Source: Escherichia coli | GTDB lineage: Bacteria > Pseudomonadota > Gammaproteobacteria > Enterobacterales > Enterobacteriaceae | NCBI RefSeq assembly: GCF_016903815.1 | Contig: NZ_CP069973.1 | Direction: 5' to 3' (one strand) | Length of the DNA stretch: 64,000 bases | Part shown: positions 60,034-60,702 of the stretch, piece after piece | Layout of the letters: the number at the start of each line of letters is the position of its first letter | How positions within the stretch are numbered: the stretch's first letter is position 1 | Translations under genes and position numbers: made by a program | Notes under the pieces: generated by a model | Databases searched by the model: none | Told to the model about the DNA's origin: nothing | What the model saw: only the letters and a program-made list of their open reading frames with translations

Positions 60034-60122
60034 TTTTTTTGCGCTGACTTCAGTTATTTAACAGAACAGTGCCTGGTAGTAACAACAATAATTTGCCAAG
60101 ACAAATAAGTAAGACAAACTCA

Positions 60123-60155
60123 GACACGCTCATACTTGAGTCGTGTCTTTTTTAT
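60123..60155 (+). terminator. Rho-independent terminator after zinT
   Basis: gacacgctca...tgagtcgtgtc hairpin followed by ttttttatt. Confidence 0.6.
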
Positions 60156-60702
60156 TATGTCTGTAGAAAAAAAATGCGAAAAAGGCGAACAATAAATACA
60201 CAACTCAGCCATACAGACTGGCAGCGCAAATGTTTCCAGGAGCAAGTCATCTGTCATGGTAAAGCTAACCAGAAATATAGGTTAATTTTGGTGTTTAAAC
60301 CTTTTTTACTTGTTAGTATGATACAAAGGCTTTCAAAAAAGCTGGGAAATTCAACAACTCTTGGAAATTATGGACTTTGTCCCGCGGCTTTAATCTGACG
60401 GCCGCGTTCCTTTTTTGACTCAATTATTGACCCCTTCTCTACGCAACTTCAGTTCCCGCCAGCAACTTTGCGGCAGTTTCATAGGATCAATGTCTAAAAG
60501 AATAATGGTGACCGATAAGAAAACGACTGAATAACTGTAGATTTTCGCTCGAAACCTTCCTGTCAGCTCCATAGCGAATCAAGTGCTGAATGTCACAGTA
60601 TCGAACAGAAAACAGTGACGATCTAACCCTTCAAGAATATTCTACGATTGTTCTGTTTAGGAAAAGCAAGGCGGGAAGTCAGGAGATAAGTCATTGATAA
60701 AG

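Follow-up and report, generated by a model that had tools for sequence, protein, structure and literature searches.

The zinT-serU interval of the window

In Escherichia coli K-12, zinT is followed by yodB (531 bp), serU, mtfA and asnT (b1973-b1975 for zinT-yodB-serU). This order, with a yodB of about 530 bp, was correctly given in the original prediction for the 64-kb stretch of E. coli DNA analysed here (hereafter the window), which held that no yodB-like ORF lies between zinT and serU and that a local deletion at a neighbouring island hot spot might account for this. The locus raises the questions of whether yodB is indeed missing and, if so, by what kind of event the difference from K-12 arose. 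The features concerned are the following.

58491-59126: msrQ, to the left of zinT
59383-60033, + strand: zinT (yodA), a periplasmic metal-binding protein (Pfam ZinT, E = 8e-85); left anchor of the interval
60034-60702: the zinT-serU interval, 669 bp
60034-60255: segment specific to the short form of the interval, 222 bp
60256-60702: segment common to the short and long forms, 447 bp, serU-proximal
60703-60792, - strand: serU, tRNA-Ser(CGA)
60886-61683, + strand: mtfA (yeeI), a flank gene of the high-pathogenicity island with experimentally shown co-transfer
61784-61859, + strand: asnT, tRNA-Asn(GTT), attachment site of the high-pathogenicity island
61860-64000: left end of the Yersinia high-pathogenicity island (HPI), with its integrase and ybtS
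from 63130, - strand: ybtS, which runs past the end of the window

The interval was found to be as described, 669 bp long and AT-rich at 38-40% GC (37.8% over 60034-60255 and 39.6% over 60256-60702, compared with 49.6% for the whole window). A tblastn search with K-12 YodB, the check proposed at the outset, gave no real match and hence no YodB-like coding sequence in the 64-kb window (best E = 0.56), and within 60034-60702 the best E value was 4.1, over 12 aa. Neither Pfam nor the YodB comparison revealed a member of the cytochrome b561 family (PF01292) in 60034-60702, and the hydropathy of the largest ORF (see below) agrees with these searches; the absence of a yodB-like ORF is confirmed. Rfam models recognized only the tRNAs when applied to the interval, with matches to sX4 and naRNA4 falling far under their gathering scores.

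The AT-richness is not peculiar to the interval; it spans the entire zinT-serU neighbourhood (59383-60702) and its K-12 counterpart, at 38-44% GC compared with 49.6% for the window. The nearest relatives of ZinT outside Escherichia share only about 72% identity with it, and zinT itself may be an old acquisition too. Just 3' of msrQ lies a REP-like element (59125-59190), whose naRNA4 match of 35.8 bits is below the gathering score of 59.5, and the msrQ-zinT spacer is the most diverged of the segments shared with K-12, at 93.0% identity.

Comparison with the K-12 locus

The flanking genes, their order and their orientation all match between K-12 and the window, zinT being 97.5% identical and serU 100% identical; the difference is that the K-12 locus carries a 176-aa cytochrome b561 homolog, YodB, with no counterpart in the window, and that its zinT-serU interval measures 1,442 bp rather than 669 bp. 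When the two intervals were aligned, as had also been proposed, homology stopped exactly at the zinT stop codon and restarted at window position 60256 (K-12 L001:3001), from which point the remaining 447 bp, as far as serU, are 96.0% identical. Between these two points K-12 has 995 bp (342 bp of upstream DNA, the 531 bp of yodB and 122 bp downstream) where the window has 222 bp, and the sole match between them is a stretch of 30 bp at 87%, lying over the stem of the zinT terminator. The sequence left in the window is not that of the K-12 flanks joined together, as a simple deletion would have left it, owing to these 222 bp, which are mostly without a K-12 counterpart; the locus differs by replacement, with 222 bp of mostly non-homologous DNA in place of 995 bp.

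The edges of the exchanged segment are graded. Six of the 16 differences between the two zinT genes fall within the last 100 bp, and on the other side seven of the 18 differences in the shared 447-bp segment fall within its first 38 bp (60256-60293), making the right boundary fuzzy. We found no direct or inverted repeats at the segment junctions. Because fuzzy boundaries are typical of homologous exchange between diverged haplotypes, and atypical of illegitimate deletion, they suggest homologous recombination with a diverged donor.

On the K-12 side, the non-coding 122 bp 3' of yodB (L001 2879-3000) are 93.4-95.9% identical among long-form alleles. In the same comparison both yodB (99.1-99.6%) and the upstream 342 bp (98.5-99.4%) are less variable.

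Two forms of the interval across E. coli

We searched 5,426 complete E. coli genomes with each of the two segments. The K-12 yodB segment of 995 bp is present in 3,114 of them and the 222-bp short segment in 2,304 (about 42%), as one copy per genome at 93-100% identity. A concatenated query of the yodB coding sequence and the 222 bp matched 5,418 genomes, which is the sum of 3,114 and 2,304; no genome therefore has both segments, and the short-form genomes are without yodB anywhere. This answers, at the level of the population, whether the gene might lie elsewhere in the genome, the short-form genomes without yodB including strain 7/2, which is 100% identical to the window over the region.

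The short form is not the property of a single clone, as a recent deletion would be, since it occurs in 2,304 genomes and in E. albertii (see below). Its alleles are also deep, with identities of 97.1-99.1% in zinT and 92.8-99.5% in the 222 bp (differences of up to 2.9% and 7.2%, respectively), in contrast to the shallow long-form alleles, whose zinT genes are 99.4-99.5% identical among K-12, O157:H7 and a third strain. The absence of yodB here is an ordinary, old and common allele. Variation of this kind is already known, in that public genomes without yodB exist by the thousand and the gene has served as a marker in one published study. We conclude that yodB is an accessory gene and that its absence is normal strain variation, of little weight for wider biology.

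Islands at serU

The idea of a deletion had been prompted by the neighbouring serU/asnT hot spot, and islands inserted at serU show what integration does to the interval. In three genomes these islands join right after the 3'-terminal TGGCGGAGAGAGGG of the tRNA gene (60703-60716), and the interval is left whole beside zinT; island integration is therefore not the cause of the difference. Furthermore, 447 bp separate the variable segment from serU and 1.5 kb separate it from asnT, no direct repeat of the serU 3' end bounds it, and no integrase or other mobility gene was found in the interval or in the 995 bp of K-12. We also considered the yodB segment as the remnant of a serU island and rejected this, because it does not abut the tRNA 3' end, has no direct repeats and contains no mobility gene.

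An integrase-bearing serU island with the same join (TGGCGGAGAGAGGG, then TCTAA(A/T)TTTTTAGTGTT) occurs in a cryptic Escherichia (L003, 4803-4820) and in two E. coli strains (L083 and L086, at ~2170-2190). Separately, an inverted 17-mer near-copy of the serU 3' end, with three mismatches, lies at ~60433-60449 (L001 3178-3194, minus strand) in the segment common to both forms; about 0.015 such copies per locus are expected by chance, and an att direct repeat would lie in the other orientation.

Outgroups and the direction of change

The locus of E. albertii (NBRC 107761) reads msrQ-zinT-567 bp-serU-mtfA, with no YodB. Its interval resembles that of the window in being yodB-less and short (567 vs 669 bp) and in being collinear with it through the terminator and the short-form-specific DNA; it differs in that identity in the variable part is only ~70-75% and in that ~115 bp (window 60305-60417) are missing. 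From the zinT stop codon to the terminator, the alignment z score is 10.6 for the window and E. albertii, 6.6 for the window and K-12, and 4.3 for K-12 and E. albertii. Beyond the terminator, the ~95 bp at 60161-60255 align with E. albertii as homologous sequence (z 5.0) but match K-12 nowhere (z ~0); a deletion from a K-12-like ancestor cannot create such DNA. On the serU side, the last 130 bp of 60256-60702 are 85% identical to E. albertii, and in the first 50 bp to the right of the breakpoint K-12 is 88% identical to E. albertii, compared with 76% for the window. What a cryptic Escherichia lineage (L003) retains of the interval is 8 bp and its final 146 bp, beyond which comes the serU island described above.

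In a scan of one genome per species, YodB lies within 4 kb of zinT at none of the 78 loci from other genera. E. albertii is the sole informative Escherichia outgroup in that scan, and a ZinT protein search, whose 90% clusters merge other Escherichia species with E. coli, added no further one; E. fergusonii, E. marmotae and E. ruysiae are thus absent from the set. The short form is thus probably ancestral and yodB gained, the direction being read from that one outgroup, and the K-12 gene order is an unsafe proxy for the ancestral state at the zinT-serU locus. The shallow diversity of the long form may reflect the younger clade of A, B1 and E.

The explanation that we favour, with reasonable confidence, is that the window carries a common yodB-less short form, likely to be ancestral, that the long form is derived and that the short form is linked to the HPI. 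The ancestral Escherichia order would have been zinT, its terminator, ~100 bp and then the serU-proximal region. A mobile cytochrome b561 cassette, of the type carried as cargo by lambdoid prophages, would have landed 3' of zinT, and the yodB segment, together with a diverged zinT 3' region, would have reached fixation in the lineage from which the K-12, B1 and O157 type strains descend. We infer that the long form had a single origin, and that it originated in this manner.

Origin of yodB

YodB is 99-100% identical within E. coli, and its nearest relatives outside (in Citrobacter, Hafnia and Salmonella) are 72-77% identical. Three of the six relatives examined (from Citrobacter portucalensis, a metagenomic sequence and Hafnia paralvei; P0010, P0004 and P0009, 75-77% identical) lie in lambdoid prophages, where each is a solitary gene on the opposite strand, with the lysis genes (holin/lysozyme) to one side and HNH/terminase to the other. 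This slot is the usual place for prophage cargo genes. Two of the other relatives occupy a variable chromosomal locus, next to homologs of Bor or DinI, and a Salmonella gene that is 65% identical to YodB has an unrelated neighbourhood.

In standing alone between late-gene modules the relatives of YodB resemble prophage morons of the lambda bor/lom type, from which K-12 yodB differs in being without phage neighbours; no phage genes or repeats flank it. The K-12 segment shares 71% DNA identity with the prophage copies over the coding sequence and 88 bp upstream, and nowhere else. The prophage link is drawn from genome and metagenome contigs, and a tblastn search of a phage collection with YodB found only phage SerU-LTIIb, in which the K-12-type chromosomal flank is included, and two remote Acinetobacter matches. 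The YodB family is thus mobile, and we infer a phage origin of the K-12 copy from these relatives.

ZinT is lipocalin-like, and we considered whether zinT and yodB might form a functional pair like yceI/yceJ or bcnA/lcoA (PMC9113575). This was rejected: a terminator separates the two genes, their adjacency is confined to the long form of E. coli, and no lipocalin gene lies beside yodB in the prophage copies. Our literature search on yodB together with zinT found nothing.

Linkage with the high-pathogenicity island

The hot-spot neighbourhood does matter, though through linkage to the HPI and co-transfer with it rather than through local deletion. In an evenly spaced sample of 60 genomes, counted as rows without correction for phylogeny, 14 have the short form contiguous with the HPI and three the short form without it, two have the long form with the HPI and ~23 the long form without it, and in the remaining 17 (~28%) an island splits the interval from serU. 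When these 17 interrupted rows are allotted by arithmetic against the totals of 3,114 and 2,304, the HPI is present in an estimated ~88% of short-form and ~6% of long-form genomes, again uncorrected for phylogeny. With only 1.6 kb between the variable segment and asnT, the linkage is strong.

The genome of O104:H4, a B1 strain, shows how the two travel together. Along the first 15 kb compared, its identity to the window is 96-98%; at ~L099:16000, inside hprS/hprR, identity rises to 99.6-99.9%, and it stays at this level through zinT, the short interval, serU, mtfA and asnT, into the HPI. The left boundary of this tract lies inside hprS/hprR (L099 ~15500-16000), ~6 kb upstream of asnT, so that the tract also replaces the hiuH, msrPQ and zinT alleles of the recipient. 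A near-identical flank across unrelated backgrounds, a discrete boundary and an association of the flank allele with the HPI are the marks of co-transfer of the island with its flank; the first two are seen in O104:H4 and the third in the sample of 60 genomes. Spread of the HPI by homologous recombination of its flanks would bring the short form with it and overwrite the yodB of the recipient; in some lineages the adjacent island did cause the loss of yodB, with allelic replacement rather than deletion as the mechanism.

Joint transfer of the HPI and yeeI/mtfA, through recombination that depends on recA, has been demonstrated (Schubert et al. 2009, PMC2606025). Our observations agree with that study in the near-identical flank haplotype across phylogroups, the O104:H4 tract including mtfA/yeeI. 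They differ in reach, since ~0.8 kb of upstream sequence (yeeI) was sequenced in that work and yodB, serU and zinT are unmentioned, whereas the O104:H4 tract extends ~6 kb upstream of asnT and so switches the yodB state. A second parallel is found in ST410, in which clone B5/H24RxC is fyuA-positive and yodB-negative and its sister clone B4/H24RxC yodB-positive and fyuA-negative, and in which the HPI was 'likely introduced via recombination' (PMC10786849). The pair is alike in that an HPI-positive subclone is without yodB and an HPI-negative sister has it; in that paper, however, yodB and fyuA are used as qPCR markers only, and the loss of yodB is not tied to the flank of the HPI tract (PMC10786849).

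As the HPI arrives with several kilobases of flank, any contrast drawn between strains with and without the island also picks up, as a confounder, a linked change in yodB content and in the 3' region of zinT. It is conceivable, if doubtful, that yodB is domesticated prophage cargo coupled to the HPI by the 1.6-kb linkage, so that each HPI sweep removes a cytochrome b561. CybB, a paralog of YodB, is a superoxide:quinone oxidoreductase. If the idea were right, loss of yodB might add to phenotypes that are credited to the HPI alone, for example the faster growth of ST410 B5.

The HPI integrase of the window (62010-62936) is a pseudogene, in which 347 bp of the gene that is intact and 1,263 bp long in EC0430 and O104:H4 are deleted (junction 62143/62144). 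The integrase of the identical strain 7/2 is annotated as 'frameshifted', and the lesion is common only to the first rows of the sample.

Strain history and alternative explanations

In the 48 kb that precede zinT, identity between the window and K-12 stays within 97.1-98.2% throughout and shows no step, and the window is only 96-98% identical to the O104:H4 background. These values suggest that the strain belongs to a deep lineage outside A and B1, in which the short form is probably native. This bears on the proposal that the ancestors of the strain, like those of O104:H4 and ST410 B5, lost yodB on importing the HPI with its flanks. The allele of the window does belong to the HPI-linked class; it is 99.6-99.9% identical to the imported O104:H4 tract and is shared at 99.9-100% over 2,667 bp with genomes of diverse sources. 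No tract boundary is visible against K-12 in the 48 kb upstream, however, and this, with the low identity to the O104:H4 background and a short form that is probably native, makes such a history, in which the boundary would lie beyond the window, unlikely for this strain. A recent local deletion of yodB, by integration or excision at serU or asnT, is very improbable indeed. Its appeal lies in the position of the interval between two tRNA island sites, with the HPI 1.1 kb to the right, and yet the change is a replacement whose junctions are without repeats, the short form has diverged by up to 7% among its 2,304 genomes and occurs in E. albertii, and serU islands join at 60703-60716 and leave the interval intact, its variable segment being 447 bp away from serU and 1.5 kb away from asnT.

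A different direction of change would follow if the ancestor had been zinT-yodB-serU, and E. albertii and the short-form E. coli shared one old loss of yodB accompanied by sequence turnover. Genes of the YodB family are widespread in Enterobacterales, both forms retain the zinT terminator and, just to the right of the breakpoint, K-12 is closer than the window to E. albertii; these points speak for such a loss. It does not, however, explain the ~95 bp (60161-60255) common to the window and E. albertii, which have no K-12 counterpart and which deletion cannot make; yodB lies beside zinT or serU in no other genus examined, the long-form alleles are much shallower than the short-form ones, and the closest relatives of YodB are prophage cargo. 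We therefore regard an ancient loss as improbable and prefer an ancestral short form with later gain of yodB.

The 109-aa ORF and the hairpins of the interval

The remaining features lie within the interval itself.

60069-60398, + strand: 109-aa GTG ORF, the largest ORF of the interval; judged non-coding
60122-60155, + strand: probable zinT rho-independent terminator, stem CAGACACGCTCA / TGAGTCGTGTCT, then TTTTTTATT
60294-60322, + strand: promoter-like site upstream of the hairpin at 60383-60416
60383-60416, + strand: terminator-like hairpin, CGCGGC, 11 nt, GCCGCG, then TTCCTTTTTT

The single ORF of 109 aa had been described as without membrane-protein character, and this is correct: no 19-aa Kyte-Doolittle window exceeds 1.6 (maximum 1.31) and no transmembrane segment is present, compared with ten such windows above 1.6 (maximum 2.33) in K-12 YodB. 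The ORF has no Pfam match at E <= 1, and a Shine-Dalgarno sequence was not found. It is open in the four divergent short-form alleles examined, and against the most divergent of these it shows five synonymous and 13 non-synonymous codon differences, which is the neutral expectation. It spans both the zinT terminator and the haplotype breakpoint, is not present in E. albertii or K-12 and is without PGAP/RefSeq annotation. We rejected it as a gene, in view of the missing Pfam, transmembrane and Shine-Dalgarno signals, the neutral codon differences and its course across terminator and breakpoint.

The hairpin at 60122-60155 is, from its sequence and predicted fold, most likely the zinT terminator. 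It has a calculated dG of -17.9 kcal/mol (z -4.2), compared with -18.6 (z -4.0) for the K-12 counterpart, and TTTTTT follows the stem, 88 nt 3' of the zinT stop codon. Its stem is the sole element of the variable segment that is recognisably conserved across the short form, K-12 and E. albertii.

A second hairpin, at 60383-60416, could be the end of a small transcript of ~90 nt or, in K-12, a distal terminator for yodB; we regard it as a candidate for either. The candidate transcript (60325-60420) has no Rfam match and a fold z of only -1.5, no better than shuffled sequence, and ~115 bp around the hairpin (window 60305-60417) are missing from E. albertii. The promoter-like site and the hairpin (60294-60416) are kept in both E. 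coli forms.
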